A stretch of 64,000 bases of DNA, from the NCBI GenBank assembly GCA_022450525.1, contig JAKUQA010000007.1, forward strand, positions 1,361 through 65,360, written 5' to 3'. This document shows positions 5,930-63,083 of the stretch, in pieces. Source of the DNA: Dehalococcoidia bacterium (lineage in GTDB: Bacteria; Chloroflexota; Dehalococcoidia; Lucifugimonadales; UBA6952). Under the pieces are notes generated by a model. The model had not been told where the DNA came from. It worked only from the letters and a program-made list of their open reading frames with translations, and did no database searches. The position numbers and the translations under genes are program-made. Each line of letters begins with the position of its first letter. Positions within the stretch are counted from its first letter, which is position 1.

Positions 5930-6178
5930 TTCACTGCTATGATTGGAAGTAGTAGGGGGAATTAAGGCTAAATAGAGAGCTGACGTTAGCTGAAAGTCAG
6001 TAGCAATAGACCCCGAACTCGTCCATGAGCGGCCAACTTGAAAAATTAATTGATTAGAGTTGGGGGTGAGCTCCTGAACATAGCTCACAAAGAGTCTATT
6101 TCATAGGAATAGGAATTAGGGTGGTAACGCGGGAAAATTTGTCTCGTCCCTTATAGGGGGCGGGATTTTTTATTTTTA
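5930..6178 (+). promoter_or_regulatory. T-box leader (tRNA-sensing riboswitch), probable Leu specifier CUC
   Basis: The conserved T-box sequence AATTAGGGTGGTAACGCGGG lies at 6114..6133. Stem I elements are AGAGAG (5974..5979) and distal-loop-like GCTGAAAG (5989..5996). The specifier-loop geometry is AGUAGUA + GGGGG (5955..5959) pairing with CCCC (6011..6014), followed by GAA-CUC-G, with CUC at 6018..6020. An intrinsic terminator lies directly before ilvB. Confidence 0.8.
6142..6176 (+). terminator. T-box attenuator (intrinsic terminator)
   Basis: A stem of about 9 bp, TCTCGTCCC / GGGGCGGGA (includes G-U pairs), with loop TTATAG, followed by TTTTTTATTTTT. It lies 25 nt upstream of the ilvB ATG. 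Confidence 0.65.
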
Positions 6179-6200: not shown

Positions 6201-7895
6201 ATGAAGCTTACGGGCGCTCAGATGGTATGTGAGAGTCTAATTCGCGAGGGTGTTGATACAATGTTTGGCATACCTGGAGGTGCAATTTTACCTTTGTACC
6301 AAACTTTTCATCAGTATCCTCAATTAAAACATATACTTGTTCGTCATGAGCAAGGAGCTGCAATGGCTGCAGATGGATATTATCGAGTAACCGGCAAGGT
6401 TGGAGTTGCAATGGCAACTTCTGGTCCTGGAGCAACCAATTTGGTGACTGGTTTAGCAACTGCTCAAATGGACTCGACTGCTATAGTTGCAATTACTGGG
6501 CAAGTATCCAGAGGTGCTATTGGTAAAGATGCTTTTCAAGAATGTGATATTACAGGTGTAACATTACCTGTAACTAAACACAATTATTTAGTTATGGATA
6601 TACACGATATACCTCGTGTAATAAAAGAAGCTTTCTACCTAGCTAAATCTGGCCGTCCTGGGCCAGTATTAGTTGATATTCCTAAAGATTTATTTACTGA
6701 AGAAGCTGAATTTATATATCCTGAAACAGTAGAAATTCCTGGATATAACCCTACTCTAGAAGGAAATATGTCTCAAATCAAAAAGGCAGCTTCCTTGATT
6801 AATTCAGCAAAAAAACCTGTTATTTTATCAGGGCATGGTGCTGTTTTATCACGTGCATTTGATGAAGTTAAAGACTTGGCAGAAAGAGCTCAAATACCTG
6901 TTATCACAACTTTGCTTGGTATAAGTTCATTTCCAGAAACCCACGTACTTAGTTTAGGCATGCCTGGAATGCATGGTGTTGCTTATGCCAGTATGGCCTT
7001 AGATCAAGCCGATCTAATTGTTAGTTTAGGTGCTAGATTTGATGATCGTGTAACTGGTAAACTCAGTTCTTTTGCCCCAAACGCTAAGATCATTCACATT
7101 GATATAGACCCTTCAGTTATAGGGCAAAATGTTAGAACACAAGTTCCATTAGTGGGTGATGTCAAAAGCGTTTTACAGACTCTTATTCCGCAAGTTAAGC
7201 AAAATAATCATGAAGACTGGGTACAGCATATTGAGGAAATGAGAATCAATCATCCTTCTCTTCGATTAAAAGAAAAAGATAATTTAACACAACAATATAT
7301 AATCAAGAAGATTTCAGATATAACACAGGGTGGTGCAGTTGTTGTAACAGGGGTTGGTCAACATCAAATGTGGACTGCTCAATATTATACTTTCTCACAA
7401 CCAAATTCATGGGTAACCTCAGGCGGACTGGGTACTATGGGGTTTGAAGTTCCTGCAGCGATGGGTGCTCAGGTTGGTAAACCCGATTCAGTAGTATGGT
7501 CTATTTGTGGTGATGGCGGTTTCCAAATGACTTTAAGTGATCTTGCAACTATTGTTGAAAATAAATTACCAATTAAATTTGCGATTATGAATAATCATTT
7601 CCTAGGAATGGTTAGACAATGGCAACATTTATTCTACGAAGATACATTTACAGCAACTCAATATTCAGGTAATCCTGATTTTGTTAAATTAGCAGAAGCA
7701 TATGGAATACATTCTTTTAGAGTGACTGAAAAATCCGAAGTTGATAACGCAATAACTGATGCTATGGAACACGATGGACCAGTATTAATAGATTTTATGG
7801 TGGATCCTGAAGAAAATGTATATCCTATGATTCCACCTGGAGAAAGTGTTCTAGAGATTGTAGAAGAACCTACGGAGGAACCAACGTGGCGATAG
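6201..7895 (+). CDS. ilvB: Acetolactate synthase large subunit
   Basis: 564 aa. ThDP-enzyme motifs (GIPGGAILPLY, GDGGFQM, MNNHFLGMVRQWQ). GGAGG RBS upstream. Confidence 0.93.
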   Translation: MKLTGAQMVCESLIREGVDTMFGIPGGAILPLYQTFHQYPQLKHILVRHEQGAAMAADGYYRVTGKVGVAMATSGPGATNLVTGLATAQMDSTAIVAITGQVSRGAIGKDAFQECDITGVTLPVTKHNYLVMDIHDIPRVIKEAFYLAKSGRPGPVLVDIPKDLFTEEAEFIYPETVEIPGYNPTLEGNMSQIKKAASLINSAKKPVILSGHGAVLSRAFDEVKDLAERAQIPVITTLLGISSFPETHVLSLGMPGMHGVAYASMALDQADLIVSLGARFDDRVTGKLSSFAPNAKIIHIDIDPSVIGQNVRTQVPLVGDVKSVLQTLIPQVKQNNHEDWVQHIEEMRINHPSLRLKEKDNLTQQYIIKKISDITQGGAVVVTGVGQHQMWTAQYYTFSQPNSWVTSGGLGTMGFEVPAAMGAQVGKPDSVVWSICGDGGFQMTLSDLATIVENKLPIKFAIMNNHFLGMVRQWQHLFYEDTFTATQYSGNPDFVKLAEAYGIHSFRVTEKSEVDNAITDAMEHDGPVLIDFMVDPEENVYPMIPPGESVLEIVEEPTEEPTWR

Positions 7896-8452
7896 GTGAG
7901 CATACTTTAGTTGCATTAGTATTACATCAACCAGGTGTTCTTAACCGAATATCAGGGATGTTTAGACGAAGAGGGTTTAATATTTCTAGCCTAACTGTAG
8001 GACAAAGTGAGTCAGAGGATTTAGCTCGTATGACTTTTGTTGTTCAAGGAGATGATGCAACTGTTGAACAAGTTACAAAGCAATTATATAAACTTGTTGA
8101 TGTCGTTCGTGTTACAGATTTAGATGAAGATAACTCTATTGTTCGAGAAATGGCTCTTGTTAAGGTTTCTGCTACTAATCAGAATAGATCTGAAATTATA
8201 CAGATAAGTGAAATATTTAGATCGAAAATTGTGGATGTAGGGGCAGAAACAGTTGTAATTGAAATTACTGGAGATCAGTCAAAGATTGATAGGTTTATTA
8301 TTTTATTACAACCTTTTGGAATCAGAGAAGTTATGCGTACAGGTGCAGTTGCTATGTCAAGAGGTAATGCTGTAACTGCTCAAATTGACAATAATGTTTC
8401 TGGTGCTTCAAGAGTCAATAATCGTCCAAAAGATTATGATCAAAATTTATAA
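7886..8452 (+). CDS. ilvN: Acetolactate synthase small (regulatory) subunit
   Basis: 188 aa. ACT domain start HTLVALVLHQPGVLNRISGMFRRRGFNISSLTVG. The GTG start overlaps the ilvB stop. Confidence 0.9.
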   Translation: MAIGEHTLVALVLHQPGVLNRISGMFRRRGFNISSLTVGQSESEDLARMTFVVQGDDATVEQVTKQLYKLVDVVRVTDLDEDNSIVREMALVKVSATNQNRSEIIQISEIFRSKIVDVGAETVVIEITGDQSKIDRFIILLQPFGIREVMRTGAVAMSRGNAVTAQIDNNVSGASRVNNRPKDYDQNL

Positions 8453-8476
8453 AAAATAGAATTAGAGGTGTATTAG

Positions 8477-9478
8477 ATGGCGGCAAAGGTATATTACGAT
8501 AAAGATGCGGATAGTTCTTATATTGCAGACAAAACTGTTGCAATAATTGGGTATGGTAGCCAAGGGCATGCTCATGCTTTAAACATGAAAGATAATGGCG
8601 TAAAAGTTATTATTGGTTTGTATGAAGGAAGTTCAAGTTGGTCTAAAGCTGAATCTGACGGTTTTGAAGTAATGACGACCTCAGAAGCTACAAAAAATGC
8701 TGATATCATAATGATGCTCCTACCTGATACGAGTCAAGCAGAGGTGTTTAAAAATGAAGTAGAGCCAAATCTAACTTCAGGTAAAAGTATTGCTTTTGCC
8801 CACGGCTTTACAATTCATTATCAAACAATTGTTCCTAATTCAAACATTGATGTTTGGATGATAGCTCCGAAAGCTCCTGGACATAGAGTTAGGGCAGTTT
8901 TTCAACAAGGTAATGGTGTACCTTCTCTAATTGCTGTACATCAGGACTATACTGGTAATGCGCAAAATATAGCACTCGCTTATGCACAGGCTATTGGTTC
9001 TATGAGAGCTGGTGTTTTAGAAACTACATTTAAAGAAGAAACAGAAACTGACTTGTTTGGTGAGCAGGCTGTTTTATGCGGTGGAGTTACTTCACTAGTT
9101 CAATCTGCATATGAAACCATGGTTGAGGCAGGATATCAACCTGAGTCAGCATATTTTGAAGTTATGCACGAATTGAAATTAATAGTAGATCTTCTTTACG
9201 AAGGTGGAATGGAGTATATGTGGTATTCAGTCAGTGATACTGCTGAGTATGGTGGACTTACTAGAGGACCAAGAGTAGTTGATGAATCAGTAAAAGAGAA
9301 TATGAAAAAAGTCATGGAAGAAATACAGAATGGAACTTTTGCCAGAGAATGGATTACTGAAAATGACGAAGGTAGACCAACTTTTCATAGAACAAGAAAA
9401 GAAAATGCCAGCCATCCGATTGAGTCCATTGGTAAAGATTTAAGAGGCATGATGCCTTGGCTAAAAGATACTGTTTAA
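8477..9478 (+). CDS. ilvC: Ketol-acid reductoisomerase (class I)
   Basis: 333 aa. [21 protein letters not shown] and [11 protein letters not shown]. Confidence 0.93.
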
Positions 9479-9511
9479 TTTAATTAAGCAAGGTAGATTA
9501 GGGGAGATATT

Positions 9512-11032
9512 ATGACAGATAAAGTGTTGATATTAGATACAACTCTACGTGATGGTGAACAAGCTGCTGGTGCGGCTATGACAATTGATGAAAAGTATGA
9601 AGTTGCACAACAACTTGACCGTCTGGGTGTAGATATTATTGAAGCAGGATTTCCCATGAGTTCTCCAGGAGACTTTGCGGCAGTGAAGAAAATTGCCGAC
9701 GAAATAAGACGACCAATTATAGCAGCGTTGTCACATGCAAATAATAAAGCTGTTGATAGAACATGGGAAGCAATTAAAGGAGCAGCCCATCCAAGAATTC
9801 ATATATTCTTATCAAGCTCAGATATTCATATAGCTCATCAATTGAAAAAGAACCGTGAAGAAGTTCTAGCAATGGCAGTTGATAATGTAGCTCGTGCTAA
9901 AAGTTATTGTGACGACGTTGAATTCTCTCCTATGGATGCAACTCGAACTGACCCAGAGTATTTATTTGGTATGCTAGAAGCATGTATCAATGCAGGTGCA
10001 ACAACCTTGAATATTCCAGATACTGTTGGTTATGCCGATCCAAGAGAGTTTGCAAGATTACTTGTCGACATTCAGGAAAAAGTTCCAAACATAGATAAGG
10101 CAAACATTAGTGTTCATTGCCACAATGATTTAGGTATGGCAGTTGCAAATAGTTTGGCAGCTGTAAAGGTAGGTGCTCGTCAAGTCGAAGGATGTATTAA
10201 TGGTATTGGAGAAAGAGCAGGAAATGCAGCTCTTGAAGAAGTTATTATGGCTCTCCATACTCGTAAAGACTATTATCAAGTCGATTTAAATATAGACCCG
10301 ACACAAATCTATAGGTCAAGTAGATTGGTTAGTGATATAACAGGATTTGCTATTCAACCTAATAAGGCTGTTACTGGTGGTAATGCATTTCGTCACGCTT
10401 CTGGTATACACCAAGACGGATTACTTAAGGATAGAACAACTTATGAAATTATGGATCCACAAATGGTTGGATGGCCAAGTAGTGAATTAGTTCTAGGTAA
10501 ACTTAGTGGAAGGCATGGTTTAAAATCTAGACTAAATGAATTAGGATATGAACCTTCAGATGCCGAATTAAATAGACTCTTTGAAGAATTTAAAGTGTTA
10601 GCTGATAAAAAGAGAGAAGTAACTGATAGAGACCTAGAAGCATTAATGAAGGATCAAAGAAGAAGTTTTGATGAAACTTTTACTCTAGATCAAATTCAAG
10701 TCACATGTGGAGATCAAGGAATTCCAACCGCAACAATTACTGTTACTGGCCCTGATGGGACTTCTAAGACGGATGCTGCAACAGGAACTGGTCCGGTTGA
10801 TGCTGTTTATCAAGCTATTAACAGAGTAATAAATGTAGATAATGAACTTACTGAATTCAGCGTTAAGTCAGTTACCGAAGGTATCGATGCGGTGGGAGAA
10901 GTAGTCATAAGAATTGTTAGTGAAGAGGCAGAATATGTTGGGCGAGGCGCTGATACTGATATAATCGTTGCATCTGCCAAAGCATATATGAATGCTCTAA
11001 ATCGTTTATTAAGTATTGGTGTAGTAAATTAA
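9512..11032 (+). CDS. leuA: 2-isopropylmalate synthase
   Basis: 506 aa. [23 protein letters not shown], and a C-terminal LeuA dimerisation/regulatory domain. Confidence 0.93.
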
Positions 11033-11069
11033 TAAGAATTCTTGTATCGATAATTCAAGAGAGGGAATC

Positions 11070-12476
11070 ATGGGGAAAACATTATTTGATAAAATTTGGG
11101 ATGAACATGTAGTTGTTCAAGATATTGATAAACCATCATTGTTATATATTGATTTGCATTTAATTCATGAAGTAACATCACCACAAGCATTTGATGGTCT
11201 TCGAGATACTAATCGAAAAGTTAGAAGACCAGAACTTACTATTGCCACTGTAGATCATAATGTACCTACTAAAGACAGACATTTGCCAATAGCAGATCAA
11301 ATTTCAAGAACGCAAATTGAGTATTTAGATAGAAATGTTAAAGAATTTGGTATTACCTATTATGGAATGAATAGTGCAGGTCAAGGGATTGTTCACGTCA
11401 TCGGACCAGAACAAGGCTACACACAACCAGGTAAAACAATTGTCTGTGGGGATAGTCATACATCCACCCATGGTGCTTTTGGGGCACTAGCATTTGGTAT
11501 AGGTACTTCTGAAGTAGAACATGTACTAGCTACACAATGTCTGCGACAAAGTAAACCCAAAACAATGGAAGTTAGAGTAGATGGGACATTACCTTTTGGG
11601 GTTACAGCTAAGGATATAATCTTAGGAGTAATTGGACAAATTGGTGTTGATGGTGCTGTAGGGCATGTTATTGAATACACAGGTGAAGCTATCCGCTCTT
11701 TATCTATGGAAGGTAGAATGACTGTATGTAATATGTCCATCGAGGCGGGCGGCCGAGCAGGAATGATTGCCCCAGATGAAACTACATATGAATATCTAAA
11801 AGGGCGACCTCACTGTCCTAAAGGCAGAAATTTTGATAAGGCTATAGAAAAATGGGATCAATATAAAAGTGATCCTGATGCTGAATACGATAAAGTGGTA
11901 ATAATCAATGCTGAAGATTTAGCTCCTTTTGTTACTTGGGGAACTAATCCAGGAATGGTTGCAAAAATAACAGATTCTGTGCCTAATCCTGATTCTTTTG
12001 AATTAGAAAGCCAACAGTTAGCTGGACAGAAAGCCTTAGAATATATGCAATTAAATGCAGGAACCCCGATAACTGACATACCATTAGACAGGGTTTTTAT
12101 TGGATCATGTACTAATTCTCGGATCGAAGATTTACGAGCAGCAGCAGAAGTCGTTAAAGGTTATAAAGTTAGCGAAACAGTTAATGCTATGGTAGTTCCT
12201 GGGTCATTTAAAGTTAAGGAAAAAGCCGAAAAAGAGGGATTGGATAGAATTTTTAAAGAATCAGGATTTGAATGGCGTGATGCCGGATGTTCCATGTGTT
12301 TGGGAATGAACCCTGATATTTTATCTCCTGGAGAACGATGTGCTTCCACTTCAAATAGGAATTTTGAAGGTAGGCAAGGTCCAGGTGGACTTACGCATTT
12401 AGTGAGCCCGCAAATGGCCGCAGCCGCAGCAATACAAGGTACTTTTGTTGATATCAGAGATTGGTCTTTTAGATAA
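11070..12476 (+). CDS. leuC: 3-isopropylmalate dehydratase large subunit
   Basis: 468 aa. Aconitase-family motifs ([29 protein letters not shown]). Confidence 0.93.
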
Positions 12477-12496
12477 TATAATTAAGGAAAATAATT

Positions 12497-13090
12497 ATGG
12501 AAAAATATAATAAAACAAATGGCAAAGTTCTTCCTTTAGATAGAGCAAATGTTGATACTGACCAAATCATACCAGCGAAGTATCTAAAAAGAGTAGAAAG
12601 GACTGGATTTGGGCAATATTTATTTGACGCCTGGAGGAAATTACCTGACGGTACACCGAATCCAGAGTTTATTCTTAATGATGATCGTTATAACGGGGCA
12701 ACTATTTTAGTTGCTGGTCCTAATTTTGGTAGTGGATCATCACGAGAACATGCACCTTGGGCTTTGAATGATTATGGCTTTAGAACTATTATAGCCCCAA
12801 GTTTTGCAGATATTTTTAGAAATAACTGCTTTCAAAATGGAATGCTGCCGATCGTTTTAGATCAGGCAATTATAGATAAAATTATTGAAAAGTCTTCTAA
12901 AAACCCAGACTACTCTTTAACTGTTGATCTTGAATCAGGAGTCATTAGTGATTCAGAAGAATTAACAATTGAATTTACAATTGATTCTTTTAAAAAACAT
13001 TGTTTACTCGAAGGTTTAGATGATATTGGTTTGACTTTGTCTGAAGAATCAATGATCAAAAACTTTGAATCGAGACACGTAATAAGTTAG
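12497..13090 (+). CDS. leuD: 3-isopropylmalate dehydratase small subunit
   Basis: 197 aa. [15 protein letters not shown] swivel-domain motif. Confidence 0.93.
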
Positions 13091-16683: not shown

Positions 16684-18190
<1,507 letters not shown>

Positions 18191-23941: not shown

Positions 23942-24426
23942 TAATTTTTTATAATTGCATTTACTGCAGATTGTATATTCTTTAAAATTTTATCATGAAT
24001 GGTGCCTTTAGATAAAAATTTAAACACCCTTGAGACATCATCGACTATTTCTATATCTATAATAATATATGCTTGTGGCAACATGTCTATAAATTTATCA
24101 GGCCATTCTATAATACAAAGTGTATCTTCTCTAATTAGTTCAAGTATTCCGATATCATAAAAATCGATTTCATCTTCAATACGATAAAGATCAACGTGGT
24201 ATATAAGAAGTTCTGATCGATATTCATGAGCTATTACAAACGTGGGACTTTTCACTTTTATAGAAGAATCAATCTCTTTAACGATTGACTGAGTAAGGGT
24301 AGTTTTGCCTGTACCCAAGTCACCTTTCAAAAGTAGTAAAGAATCTTTTGTTACAAATTGAGCTATTGCTTGGCCTAGTAATTGTGTTTGTTTCTCTGAT
24401 GTGGAAATATAGCTAAAATTACTCAT
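23941..24426 (-). CDS. tsaE: tRNA t6A37 threonylcarbamoyltransferase complex ATPase subunit
   Basis: 161 aa. Walker A GDLGTGKTT, SPTF, HVDLYR. Confidence 0.85.
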   Translation of the reverse strand: MSNFSYISTSEKQTQLLGQAIAQFVTKDSLLLLKGDLGTGKTTLTQSIVKEIDSSIKVKSPTFVIAHEYRSELLIYHVDLYRIEDEIDFYDIGILELIREDTLCIIEWPDKFIDMLPQAYIIIDIEIVDDVSRVFKFLSKGTIHDKILKNIQSAVNAIIKN

Positions 24427-25433
24427 TATTTAAAGTGATCCCATCCATTATATTGATTTACTTTGTACGCTTTACCATCTTTTATCAATTCTATGACTCC
24501 TGATTCACCAGAACAAGCTTTTCCAATAATATGAGAATCAGGTAATAAGGATTTTACTTTGTCAATTTTATCAGATGAAATGCCAAATAAAATCTCATAG
24601 TCTTCTCCTCCATTAGTTACCATTTCAAAATCTAAATTAGGAAAGACTTTAGAAATCTCTGGATGAATAGGAATACAAGAGGAATTAATAGTGGCACTAA
24701 TTTGGCTAGCAATAAGCATTTTATTAAGATCACTAAATAAGCCATCACTTATATCCATGGCACATGTAGAACCCAATTCTTTTAATATTTTACCTTCATT
24801 TATTTTAGGTTGTGGCCTGAAATGAGCATTGTAAAACAGTTGCGTATTATATTCTGTTAGATTTGGCAATTCATCTTGTGATTTGGATAACTCCAATCCT
24901 GCTTTTGACAATCCAGTCAATCCAGTTATTCCAATCAAATCTTCATCTTTAAGTAAGGAGCGTTGCAGAGTAGGATTTTGGCAAATACCGTACATGGCAA
25001 CCGTTATAAAAAGCATTGGGGATTTTACAATATCTCCGCCAACAATTTTGGTATTATAAGTTGATGCGCATTCTATTATACCTTGATAAAGAGATTTTAA
25101 GTCCTGTAATTCCATTTCTCCAGGCAATCCTAAAGTTATTAAAGCCGTTGTGGGAGTACCACCCATAGATGCTATATCGCTTAGATTTGTTGCAACAGAT
25201 TTCCATCCAATGTCCATTAAATTAGATTTGCCAATTTCAAAATGAACGTTATCAACCATTGTGTCGGTAGTTGCTAATTGTAAACCTGATTGGGTTTGCC
25301 AAGCTGCAGTATCATCACCTACATCAATTTCTACACCTATAGTTTCACTAAGATAATTTTGTACTGCATCATTAGAAAGAGTATTAGAGATGTATTCAAT
25401 AATATTAAATTCACCAAAATTGTTTATTTTCAT
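24426..25433 (-). CDS. thiL: Thiamine-monophosphate kinase
   Basis: 335 aa. AIR-synthase-like fold motifs (GDDTAAW, TTDTMVDNVHF, DISDG). Confidence 0.85.
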   Translation of the reverse strand: MKINNFGEFNIIEYISNTLSNDAVQNYLSETIGVEIDVGDDTAAWQTQSGLQLATTDTMVDNVHFEIGKSNLMDIGWKSVATNLSDIASMGGTPTTALITLGLPGEMELQDLKSLYQGIIECASTYNTKIVGGDIVKSPMLFITVAMYGICQNPTLQRSLLKDEDLIGITGLTGLSKAGLELSKSQDELPNLTEYNTQLFYNAHFRPQPKINEGKILKELGSTCAMDISDGLFSDLNKMLIASQISATINSSCIPIHPEISKVFPNLDFEMVTNGGEDYEILFGISSDKIDKVKSLLPDSHIIGKACSGESGVIELIKDGKAYKVNQYNGWDHFK

Positions 25434-60947: not shown

Positions 60948-61973
60948 TTGACTAATTCTACTCCTAATCTAAACTATGGCTCAATTTTATTTCTTGGTTC
61001 TGGTGAGACAGCATCAGCTGGACGTATATTACATGAGCAACTATTTCAAAAGCTTTCCAAGAAAAAAATAAATGTTGCAATATTGGAAACTCCGGCTGGT
61101 TTTGAACCCAATTCTGAACAAGTAGCCTCAGAAGTTTCTGATTTCTTCACAGAAAAACTCCAAAATTACCACCCTGATGTAAAAATTATCCCTGCTAGAA
61201 GACGTGATGGTAATTTTAGTACAAATTCTGAAGAAATAATTAGTGATATCAAATCTGCAGACCACATATATTTAGGTGCTGGAAGCCCAACATACTTAGT
61301 AAAACATTTAGAAGATACACTTGCTCTAGAGGCGCTTCATAATCAACACAAAAAAGGTTCGTCGATCTGTCTGACTAGTGCTTCTTCTATTGCTTTTGGG
61401 AAATGGACTCTACCAGTTTATGAAATATTCAAAGTCGGTTTGGATTTATACTGGCAAGATGGGTTAGATTTTTTTTCCAGATTTAATCTTGATTTATCTG
61501 TTATCCCTCATTGGAATAATAATGACGGTGGAAAAAAAATTGATACTAGCAGATGTTATTTAGGTAAAGAGAGGGTCGATAAACTTTTAAAAATGCTTCC
61601 AGATGAATCTGTTGTTTTAGGGCTAGATGAACACACAGGTTTGCTCTTAGACTTTTCCCATAAAGCTGTTAGTGTTGTGGGTAAAGGTTCTGTGCATCTC
61701 ATACAAGGTGGTTATGAAAAAATATATACCAACGGTGACGAATTCAAATTTGAAGATTTAGGAGATTTTACAATGCCTGAAGATGATCTCTCCTTATTAA
61801 ACAATTCAATACTCGAAGAAATTCCAAGAAATATTATTGAATTAGCAGAAAAGAGATTACAGTCAAGAAAAAATAAAGAATGGGATGAAGCCGATAGACT
61901 AAGGTCTAAAGTTTCTGAACTCGGTTATCAGATAGAAGATAATAATGATGGTTACAGTGTATCAAAATTATGA
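60948..61973 (+). CDS. Peptidase-S51 (PepE/cyanophycinase)-like domain fused to a CysRS-type C-terminal tail
   Basis: 341 aa. ADHIYLGAGSPTYLVKHL...ICLTSASSIAFG...VIPHW parallels PepE's IVIVGGGNTFQLL...YIGWSAGANLA...INPHF. The last ~47 aa, NIIELAEKRLQSRKNKEWDEADRLRSKVSELGYQIEDNNDGYSVSKL, parallel the E. coli CysRS C-terminus [47 protein letters not shown]. TTG start. Its stop overlaps the next ATG (ATGA). Confidence 0.6.
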   Translation: MTNSTPNLNYGSILFLGSGETASAGRILHEQLFQKLSKKKINVAILETPAGFEPNSEQVASEVSDFFTEKLQNYHPDVKIIPARRRDGNFSTNSEEIISDIKSADHIYLGAGSPTYLVKHLEDTLALEALHNQHKKGSSICLTSASSIAFGKWTLPVYEIFKVGLDLYWQDGLDFFSRFNLDLSVIPHWNNNDGGKKIDTSRCYLGKERVDKLLKMLPDESVVLGLDEHTGLLLDFSHKAVSVVGKGSVHLIQGGYEKIYTNGDEFKFEDLGDFTMPEDDLSLLNNSILEEIPRNIIELAEKRLQSRKNKEWDEADRLRSKVSELGYQIEDNNDGYSVSKL

Positions 61974-62497
61974 GATATATATATAAAATGTGGTATTTAT
62001 TTAATGGATTTTCATTTCTATGGGTATTAACTTTAGCTATATTGTTTTTTGGCGTGATTTTTTATAAATATATACCTCGCCCACAATTTGTAATCTTATT
62101 TACAGTATTAATTGGTAGTGTCTTTATTCTTTCACAATTTCTATATGCATCACGACAAACAGCTGGTATAAATTCTTATGAAAATGCTATTGATGAGATA
62201 CAAACCAAAGAATTTAACCTGGTATTTTTATACTCCAATTACTGAATTGGTTGCAAAACTGCAAAGCCGATCGTGGATCAGCTAGAAAAAGAATTAAAAA
62301 ATGAAATTAATGTAATTAGACTCGATGTTATGACTGAAGCAGGACGAGATTTCAGAGAAGAATTCTCTGTTCGTGTCACACCTGGATTTGTTTTAGTTAA
62401 TGATGAAAATAAAGAGTTATGGCAGTTTATTGGAATACCAAATTCCAAAACGTTCATAGAGAAAATCAAAAAAACAATAAAGGATACAAATGTATAA
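61970..62497 (+). CDS. Membrane-anchored thioredoxin-fold selenoprotein candidate (UxxC; in-frame TGA at 62243..62245 read as Sec)
   Basis: Track ORFs 61970..62245 and 62273..62497 are in the same frame and are separated only by one TGA. The joined 175-aa product has 2 TM helices, then ...LVFLYSNY-U-IGCKTAKPIVDQLEKEL...RVTPGFVLV...FIEKIKK. This is the Trx layout, with TGA at the first-Cys position of CxxC. Confidence 0.7.
62246..62285 (+). promoter_or_regulatory. Candidate SECIS region downstream of the first UGA
   Basis: Hairpin GGUUGC(A)-loop-(U)GCAA^AG^CC at 62249..62268, and mini-hairpin GAUC-GUG-GAUC at 62269..62279 (loop G 28 nt after the UGA). Both are conserved in the paralog. Not folded computationally. 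Confidence 0.35.
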
Positions 62498-63083
62498 ATT
62501 AAATTCTATATTTCCATCGAGCAAAATAACAATAGTTGTTCTTCTATTAACTACTATGATAACTATTCTTGGTTGTGGAGATTCTTCTACCGATACCACA
62601 TCAGATAAATCCGAATATGATATTAACTACGAAAACAAAGATTTGTCTGTAAAATCCATTACTGAAGATGCTAGTAGTAGCAATATTAATATAGCTCCAT
62701 TAGATTCCACTCCTAAGGTTCAAGACACAATTAATACTAATGAGCAAACAATCTCTCTGGAATCTGATAACTATTCAAAACAACTCGAAATAATAGAAAT
62801 TGATACAGACAACAAATTAAGTTTAGTTTTTCTATATTCAGACTACTGAATTGGTTGCACTAAAGCAAAACCGATCGTTGATCAGTTAGAGAATGAATTA
62901 AATCCTGAGATTGAAATCAAAAGGGTTGATATTCTTACTGAATTTGGTAATGAATTTAGTAACGAATACTCTATAAGTACACCAGGGTTTATATTACTAA
63001 ATAACTCAAACGAAGAATTATTGCGGTTTAGAGGGGTACCTAATAAGACGCAATTCGTTGAACGTTTAAAGGAATATATCTAA
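62490..63083 (+). CDS. Thioredoxin-fold lipoprotein selenoprotein candidate (UxxC; in-frame TGA at 62847..62849 read as Sec)
   Basis: The track ORF 62490..62849 ends ...LVFLYSDY at TGA. The same frame continues for 77 sense codons (IGCTKAKPIVDQLENELNPEIEIKRVDILTEFGNEFSNEYSISTPGFILLNNSNEELLRFRGVPNKTQFVERLKEYI) to TAA at 63081..63083. The N-terminus has a signal peptide with lipobox ILGC and a polar linker. The ATG overlaps the upstream stop. Confidence 0.7.
62850..62889 (+). promoter_or_regulatory. Candidate SECIS region downstream of the second UGA
   Basis: GGUUGC-ACUAAA-GCAA^AA^CC at 62853..62872, and GAUC-GUU-GAUC at 62873..62883. The architecture matches the first copy. Confidence 0.35.

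Follow-up and report, generated by a model that had tools for sequence, protein, structure and literature searches.

Tandem thioredoxin-like genes with in-frame UGA codons and candidate SECIS hairpins in a marine Dehalococcoidia bacterium

Here, we examine two adjacent genes, A and B, in a 64,000-nucleotide stretch of DNA from a Dehalococcoidia bacterium (GenBank assembly GCA_022450525.1, contig JAKUQA010000007.1, positions 1,361 to 65,360 of the forward strand; hereafter the window), each of which carries an in-frame UGA codon followed by a short hairpin. Judging from sequence comparison, A and B are very likely tandem paralogous thioredoxin-fold thiol:disulfide oxidoreductases in which the nucleophilic Cys of the CxxC motif is replaced by selenocysteine (Sec), each UGA being accompanied by a selenocysteine insertion sequence (SECIS) hairpin. 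The recoded frame runs through both UGA codons, these codons align with a Cys of related proteins, and the hairpin downstream is conserved, covarying, and specific to the Sec forms of the family. An earlier reading of the window, made from its letters alone (the original prediction), had placed candidate SECIS elements 3' of both UGA codons and drawn two hairpins shared by the genes; the candidacy stands for the second hairpin, once extended by a lower stem, and is not supported for the first.

Both products match the Pfam Thioredoxin domain (PF00085) across the UGA, at 38.7 bits for A and 28.9 bits for B (cut-off 23.5). When they are aligned with solved thioredoxins, the K-P-I-V-D-Q-L-E stretch after the UGA coincides with the conserved helix downstream of CGPC. 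All 23 distinct sequences of the clade retain the TGA, as do six distant lineages; downstream of it, residues are conserved and codons vary, Leu at +26 and Arg at +34, for example, each being a single amino acid written in four codons. Database hits called with Trp (W) at this site have TGA in all seven cases for which the DNA was fetched, with no genuine TGG among them, and other family members carry Cys or Ser at the Sec position. By their domain, by the predicted Sec at the place of the N-terminal Cys, and by the existence of Cys homologues, A and B belong to the thioredoxin-fold UxxC selenoproteins. None of the selenoprotein-specific models of NCBIfam matches either product, and public gene calls either split gene A into fragments of 91 and 74 amino acids (aa) or render its UGA as W. 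Besides A and B, no other plausible gene with an in-frame TGA was found in the window, the remainder being antisense or off-frame stretches.

The two genes lie in tandem, the ATG of B overlapping the end of A. The N-terminus of the A product contains two hydrophobic segments, as read from the translation. The N-terminus of the B product (62490..62580, + strand) reads as a signal peptide with a lipobox, ..TILG-C-GDSS, so B would be a lipid-anchored selenoprotein, probably extracytoplasmic.

The candidate element itself is small. The GAUC-GU(G/U)-GAUC pairings of the original prediction exist at 62269..62279 and 62873..62883, and the GUK loop starts at the 28th nucleotide after the UGA, a spacing of 27 nt; this short hairpin was rightly proposed as a candidate SECIS but drawn too short, as the element comprises that hairpin plus three lower pairs (Table 1). 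RNAalifold recovers a 19-nt consensus, A-R-C [C] GAUC GUK GAUC [A] G-Y-U, in the close clade and recovers the hairpin again in the wider alignment of Sec forms. Every one of the 25 Sec forms has it in the same register, six of them representing separate lineages that fall into different 50%-identity clusters. Possible upstream pairings around the UGA are not the same in the two paralogues (CCAAU/AUUGG in A, UUCAG/CUGAA in B), and inspection led us to discard them.

Covariation, which the original prediction had proposed to look for in homologues, was assessed on an ungapped alignment of the 25 Sec sequences (A6), 19 of them from one clade and six from distant lineages; the contigs of near-identical strains (L001-L008) carry no informative variation. 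Over the eight-position stem, 86.5% of the stem cells are paired, and compensatory changes do occur, at four of the eight positions: columns 30-46 (AU/GC/GU), 33-43 (GC/UA), 34-42 (AU/GC), and 35-41 (UA/CG). On four of five measures, the observed values are attained by no more than six of 500 column shuffles (range 0-6); the fifth measure, further pair types, does not rise above the shuffles (436/500). Sliding the 3' partners by 1-3 nt leaves 7.5-36.5% of the cells paired, with much less covariation. The loop G-U (columns 37-38) is invariant in all 25 sequences, and the loop lies 27 nt from the UGA in A, in B, and in six of six distant Sec lineages, with no insertions or deletions between the Sec codon and the loop. 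Because two G-U pairs occur in the stem, the functional molecule is more readily seen as the RNA of the + strand than as a DNA palindrome.

Within the close clade, the G/A and C/T differences between A and B, listed in the original prediction as mere variation, sit where they were said to sit but are in fact a compensatory exchange of a G-C for an A-U pair. This R-Y pair of the lower stem is G-C in 10 and A-U in the other 10 of 20 close-clade sequences, with no intermediates. Taken alone, the close-clade covariation is thin, since the state of the pair largely follows the paralogue and the B genes of two lineages (L016 and L013) look gene-converted. The C/A mismatch has variants of its own: a change of CAG to CGG (Gln to Arg) in L016:1498 gives a C-G pair, and a change of CAG to CUG (Gln to Leu) in L026:2998 leaves the position unpaired, the rest of the stem being kept in both.

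The wider family supplies forms with Cys in place of Sec. Word-indexed protein searches returned the narrow clade only and no Cys forms, and an exhaustive profile search was needed to reach further. It brought out a broad family of membrane-anchored, thioredoxin-like proteins of ~160 aa with the motif YS[DN]Y-[U/C/S]-x-[GA]-C-x3-KP-x-V-D-R-L-E. Of the best 150 cluster representatives, many have Cys at the active site, three have Ser, and ~22 are called W; ~25 or more are fragments bounded on one side by the active-site position, the appearance that gene calling gives to Sec forms. The Ser members (P0024, P0038, and P0045) have S-x-A-C in place of the Sec or Cys first position.

At the DNA level, we compared Sec lineages from different 50%-identity clusters (L033, L036, L037, L038, L040, and L048) with Cys-form controls (L042, L043, L044, and L046, together with the high-GC homologue L024). 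All six distant Sec forms have a hairpin in the identical register, centered on a Val codon (GUN) ten codons after Sec and built from differing sequences, three of which are given in Table 1. In local 25-nt folds, the same-register hairpin appears in eight of eight Sec lineages (-3.6 to -10.2 kcal/mol) and in none of the five Cys forms (0 to -2.1 kcal/mol); of the eight in-register pairs, Sec forms make 6-7 and Cys forms 1-6. The original prediction had named nucleotide conservation shared with Cys-containing genes as the result that would speak against a SECIS, and the SECIS reading withstands this comparison, as no Cys form favors the hairpin as its local fold. In one Cys homologue, the identical peptide AKPIVDQ is written GCC AAA CCC AUA GUC GAU CAA, and the same peptide in other codons means that the nucleotide pattern is no by-product of the protein sequence. 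The Val ten codons after Sec is always GUN in Sec forms; in Cys forms, the residue is V, I, or F.

Codon choice in A and B points the same way. A check of the sequence bore out that the 13 nt from each TGA (TGAATTGGTTGCA) are identical in A and B, and GCAAA(G/A)CCGATCGT(G/T)GATCAG(C/T)TAGA was found in both genes, the segment GCAAARCCGATCGTKGATCAGYTAGA being near-identical between them. It was also right that the genes have diverged elsewhere: ungapped identity is 52% overall and 23-43% towards the 3' ends, compared with 77-83% in 30-nt windows that start from 15 nt before to 30 nt after the UGA, so that the ~45 nt after the UGA are much more alike than the remaining gene. The Pro codon CCG, singled out as rare-looking, has a codon share of 5% in the window; with the shares of TGC (23%), ATC (13%), and CAG (18%), the joint probability is ~3e-4, and all four show little or no variation among 20 distinct homologous sequences, which reach down to ~70% protein identity. 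When the same peptides were recoded 1000 times with the codon usage of the window, an equally good SECIS-type hairpin arose in 0.3% (A) and 4.3% (B) of the recodings. Synonymous diversity among A orthologues is 0.066 at codons +3..+13 versus ~0.29-0.30 elsewhere, a dip of about four-fold. A hairpin built from the codons of the alpha-2 helix (K-P-I-V-D-Q-L) would account for the frozen, locally rare CCG, AUC, and CAG codons and for the switch from AAG/CUA to AAA/UUA.

The identity of the 13 nt after the TGA is confined to this genome, other lineages having ATT, ATA, ATG, ACT, or TTA and GGT, GGA, GGG, or GAA there. In the B paralogues L016:2105 and L013:2093, the tract from the UGA to ~+45 is A-like (K-N/K-T, GTG, AAG...CTA) and the rest of the gene is B-like; gene conversion between the tandem copies is the probable origin of this tract. 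A DNA-level explanation by GATC sites or palindromes was rejected: the window shows no enrichment of GATC, with 193 sites where 216 would be expected, and its only two copies of GATCGTKGATC are those in the hairpins.

The bacterial SECIS (bSECIS) consensus of Zhang and Gladyshev, as summarized in PMC13188914 (Fig. 2), describes an upper stem of 4-16 bp capped by a loop of 3-9 nt; one of the first two loop nucleotides is a G, usually with G or U after it, the loop lies 16-37 nt from the UGA, and the minimum free energy is -7.5 kcal/mol or lower (PMC13188914). Scoring against such a model, another step proposed in the original prediction, gives agreement in geometry for the second hairpin of A and B, with its GUK triloop, 4-bp upper stem, loop G-U, and 27-nt spacing, and the loops of the distant Sec forms measure 3-7 nt. 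Measured against the -7.5 kcal/mol of the consensus, A needs the contribution of an adjacent mini-hairpin to attain -9.7 kcal/mol, and the distant Sec forms range from -5.3 to -10.2 kcal/mol. Folding of the RNA after the UGA, likewise proposed, gave a mixed answer: RNAalifold and local folds yield a conserved hairpin, but the folding energy of the region does not stand out from dinucleotide shuffles (z = -0.6 to -1.2). Since the z-scores do not separate the region from shuffled sequence, energy alone would have wrongly dismissed the element. Rfam searches at gathering thresholds over the whole window, and at E up to 10 over 62150..63000, gave no SECIS-type match, a result that is uninformative for elements this short.

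Several points weigh against SECIS elements and Sec at these sites. By itself the hairpin is weak, at -6.0 kcal/mol in A and -3.6 kcal/mol in B, and B falls short of -7.5 kcal/mol, with -6.8 kcal/mol at best when the hairpin is enforced and neighboring structure is included; the energy z is only about -1 against dinucleotide shuffles, and the minimum-free-energy fold of the 60 nt of gene B favors the first hairpin. The synonymous dip is weak in B orthologues (0.17 versus 0.16-0.26), and the covarying pair of the close clade could reflect one event followed by A-to-B gene conversion. The Cys-form controls number only five, and one of them (L042) retains six of the eight in-register pairs. Finally, selA, selB, selD, and tRNA-Sec were not found within the 64-kb window by ARAGORN, Rfam, or domain scans of candidate open reading frames (ORFs). 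A selD candidate of the AIR-synthase family at 24426..25433 (- strand) was rejected as ThiL, with 247.8 bits versus 56.6 bits for selD (selD cut-off 125), and a 607-aa GTPase considered as Sec machinery is LepA. Dehalococcoidia genomes with 46-49 selenoproteins are on record (PMC13326102). In the source genome, selA, selB, selC, and selD are presumed to be present.

Three other explanations were weighed. A SECIS composed of both hairpins, with GGUUGC...GCAA..CC (62249..62268) and the short GAUC-GUK-GAUC stacked side by side, is unlikely. Both can be drawn in A and B with a combined -6.0 kcal/mol, hairpin 1 is the minimum-free-energy choice for B, TGC (23% usage) is found in 24 of 25 Sec sequences, and codons +2..+9 form the least variable synonymous stretch among A orthologues; GGUUGC also opens the SelB-binding hairpin of E. 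coli fdhF, a lead rather than a test. Yet hairpin 1, although its pairings are present in both genes as first described, is not supported in a SECIS role, being broken without compensation in many homologues: across the 25 sequences, pair 15-28 is broken in 12, pair 14-31 in six, and pair 16-27 in four, with no compensatory change, the pair-breaking variation being GGT to GGA or GGG, GGA to GAA, and GCA to GCT. The six distant Sec lineages show no compensation in its register either, and their 60-nt folds put no common hairpin there; moreover, its GG/CC pairs compete with the covarying lower pairs of the second hairpin. Hairpin 1 also lies outside the bSECIS model (PMC13188914): only 9 nt separate its loop from the UGA, and neither of the first two loop nucleotides is a G.

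It is more improbable still that there is no RNA element at all and that the pattern reflects protein constraint on the thioredoxin alpha-2 helix combined with gene conversion between the tandem paralogues. K-P-I-V-D-Q-L is the conserved thioredoxin helix after CGPC, the A-like tract in the L016 and L013 B paralogues resembles gene conversion, and the folding z-score suits this explanation, but rare codons would hardly stay frozen on these grounds across lineages down to 70% protein identity, nor would six lineages of different 50%-identity clusters arrive at a same-register hairpin from different sequences with compensatory changes. Cys forms with the same or similar peptides use other codons and do not favor the hairpin as a local fold, and the lack of GATC enrichment in the window also speaks against it. 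Least credible of all, to the point that we give it next to no weight, is that the UGA codons are ordinary stops in split or decaying genes or are read as Trp. Gene callers do give separate fragments, or W at the site under code 4, and no Sec machinery is seen within the window; against this, the TGA stands exactly at the catalytic position in every homologue with both flanks under protein-level constraint, the W-called hits with fetched DNA have TGA throughout and never TGG, and TGA ends six of 61 ordinary ORFs in a window whose gene density is normal under code 11.

Under the preferred reading, that of a Sec codon with a SECIS formed by the extended second hairpin, each gene would present the UGA, a 19-nt spacer, and then the 19-nt hairpin, made of lower pairs A-U, R-Y, and C-G, a C/A mismatch, a 4-bp GAUC/GAUC stem, and a GUK triloop that is also the Val codon ten after Sec. 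By analogy with E. coli and Moorella, SelB-GTP carrying Sec-tRNA(Sec) would bind the apical G-U loop via its C-terminal winged-helix domain, the hairpin would sit just outside the ribosomal mRNA entrance while the UGA is in the A site, and SelB would deliver Sec-tRNA to the A-site UGA in competition with release factor 2. SelB binding and actual Sec insertion at the UGA codons of A and B may thus be expected on the strength of that analogy.

A bolder and rather doubtful extension is that these hairpins form a distinct, minimal class of bacterial SECIS: a weak hairpin of 6-8 positions whose apical G-U comes from a fixed alpha-2 Val codon, placed exactly 27 nt from the UGA across 50%-identity clusters, below the usual energy threshold in some members, and possibly kept uniform here by gene conversion. 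If that were true, the SelB of SAR202/Dehalococcoidia would recognize much less RNA than the E. coli model leads one to expect, and the identity of one residue, Val, would be set by the SECIS. As it stands, the mechanism is known, A and B are an ordinary example of it, and the understanding of Sec decoding is unchanged.

The practical yield lies in annotation and prediction. Two predicted selenoprotein genes are restored from what public annotation carries as hypothetical fragments or Trp mistranslations, and many relatives in abundant marine Chloroflexota are misannotated in the same way. Across the clusters P0001, P0002, P0008, P0009, P0016, and P0019-P0036, many entries have Trp at the active site, and others are N- or C-terminal fragments bounded by the UGA; the Trp entries arise from short contigs translated with a code that reads TGA as Trp. 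The candidate recoding signal is narrowed to 19 defined nucleotides, for which compensatory variants exist in nature and Cys forms serve as negative controls; with this set, predictors of SECIS elements and selenoproteins could be trained for AT-rich genomes, in which energy thresholds fail. The signal also offers an example of a coding-region RNA signal that freezes codon choice.

The window has 33% GC and is densely coding, with ordinary stop codons in its 61 long ORFs distributed as TAA 45, TAG 10, and TGA 6; the genes neighboring A and B use the standard genetic code. Marine metagenomes, including Tara, hold contigs near-identical to the window, and public fragments of A and B are labeled "SAR202 cluster bacterium" or Chloroflexota. 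Upstream of A lies a gene for a 341-aa protein (Table 1) whose stop overlaps the ATG of A in an ATGA, so the genes probably form one operon; the order of this gene and A is retained in a diverged lineage. The RNA genes of the window are a bacterial 16S rRNA, a large signal recognition particle (SRP) RNA, and a T-box leader. The 16S rRNA gene is complete (16687..18189, - strand), with an amidase gene next downstream on the same strand, and no 23S or 5S gene occurs anywhere in the 64-kb window, so the rRNA genes appear unlinked. The T-box leader (5930..6154, + strand, 127.5 bits) stands immediately upstream of an ilvB-ilvN-ilvC-leuA-leuC-leuD cluster (6201..13090), an arrangement suggestive of regulation of branched-chain amino-acid synthesis through tRNA sensing, like that of the Bacillus ilv-leu operon.

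Table 1. Genes, UGA codons, and hairpins discussed in the text (window coordinates).
Feature	Position	Strand	Details
Gene A, membrane-anchored thioredoxin-like selenoprotein (predicted)	61970..62497	+	175 codons; motif U-I-G-C; frame open across TGA
Gene B, lipoprotein-type thioredoxin-like selenoprotein (predicted)	62490..63083	+	197 codons; lipobox I-L-G-C; motif U-I-G-C; frame open across TGA
In-frame UGA of gene A, predicted Sec codon	62243..62245	+	Aligns with first Cys of CGPC in solved thioredoxins; TGA in all A orthologues
In-frame UGA of gene B, predicted Sec codon	62847..62849	+	Same motif position as in gene A; TGA in all B orthologues
Candidate SECIS hairpin, gene A	62265..62283	+	AGC[C]GAUC-GUG-GAUC[A]GCU; loop 62273..62275; upper stem 62269..62272/62276..62279; in minimum-free-energy fold
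Candidate SECIS hairpin, gene B	62869..62887	+	AAC[C]GAUC-GUU-GAUC[A]GUU; loop 62877..62879; same-register local fold
Hairpin apex, distant Sec form L040			CCUGUC-GUU-GACAGG
Hairpin apex, distant Sec form L033			CCUAU-AGUUG-AUAGG
Hairpin apex, distant Sec form L036			AGCCUG-CCGUAGA-CAGGCU
Hairpin 1, gene A	62249..62268	+	GGUUGC-AAAACU-GCAA-AG-CC; unsupported as conserved structure
Hairpin 1, gene B	62853..62872	+	GGUUGC-ACUAAA-GCAA-AA-CC; unsupported as conserved structure
Upstream gene, 341 aa	60948..61973	+	Weak peptidase S51/cyanophycinase-like part, then tail resembling cysteinyl-tRNA synthetase C-terminal anticodon-binding domain

The prototype of the bacterial SECIS is that of E. coli fdhF and fdnG, and a SelB-SECIS complex is also known from Moorella thermoacetica. 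The hairpins of A and B resemble bacterial SECIS elements in position, since they are part of the coding sequence and closely follow an in-frame UGA at a site where homologues have Cys, and in being specific to the Sec forms of a family that also has Cys forms; they differ from the usual element in being very small and weak (-3.6 to -6.0 kcal/mol), with a triloop and seven pairs interrupted by a C/A mismatch. As for the proteins, UxxC thioredoxin-like selenoproteins are among the commonest marine selenoprotein families (PMC1088965; PMC2398784), and A and B share with them the thioredoxin fold, predicted Sec for the N-terminal Cys, a marine habitat, and coexisting Cys homologues. The "Trx-like 3" subfamily of the Global Ocean Sampling (GOS) data, cd02950-like with a UxxC motif, counts 212 Sec and 183 Cys forms (PMC2398784), and the roughly balanced Sec/Cys ratio in the A/B family is similar; the two may be the same family, likened here by motif, habitat, and Sec/Cys ratio only. 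Unlike the UxxC subfamilies of GOS, the A/B locus has two tandem copies, one transmembrane-anchored and one of the lipoprotein type. In architecture, A and B are like the TlpA/ResA/DsbE-type and TxlA oxidoreductases, having a single thioredoxin domain behind an N-terminal membrane anchor or lipobox, but they differ from these in matching plain Thioredoxin (PF00085) rather than Redoxin or AhpC-TSA and in their predicted active site, U-I-G-C.

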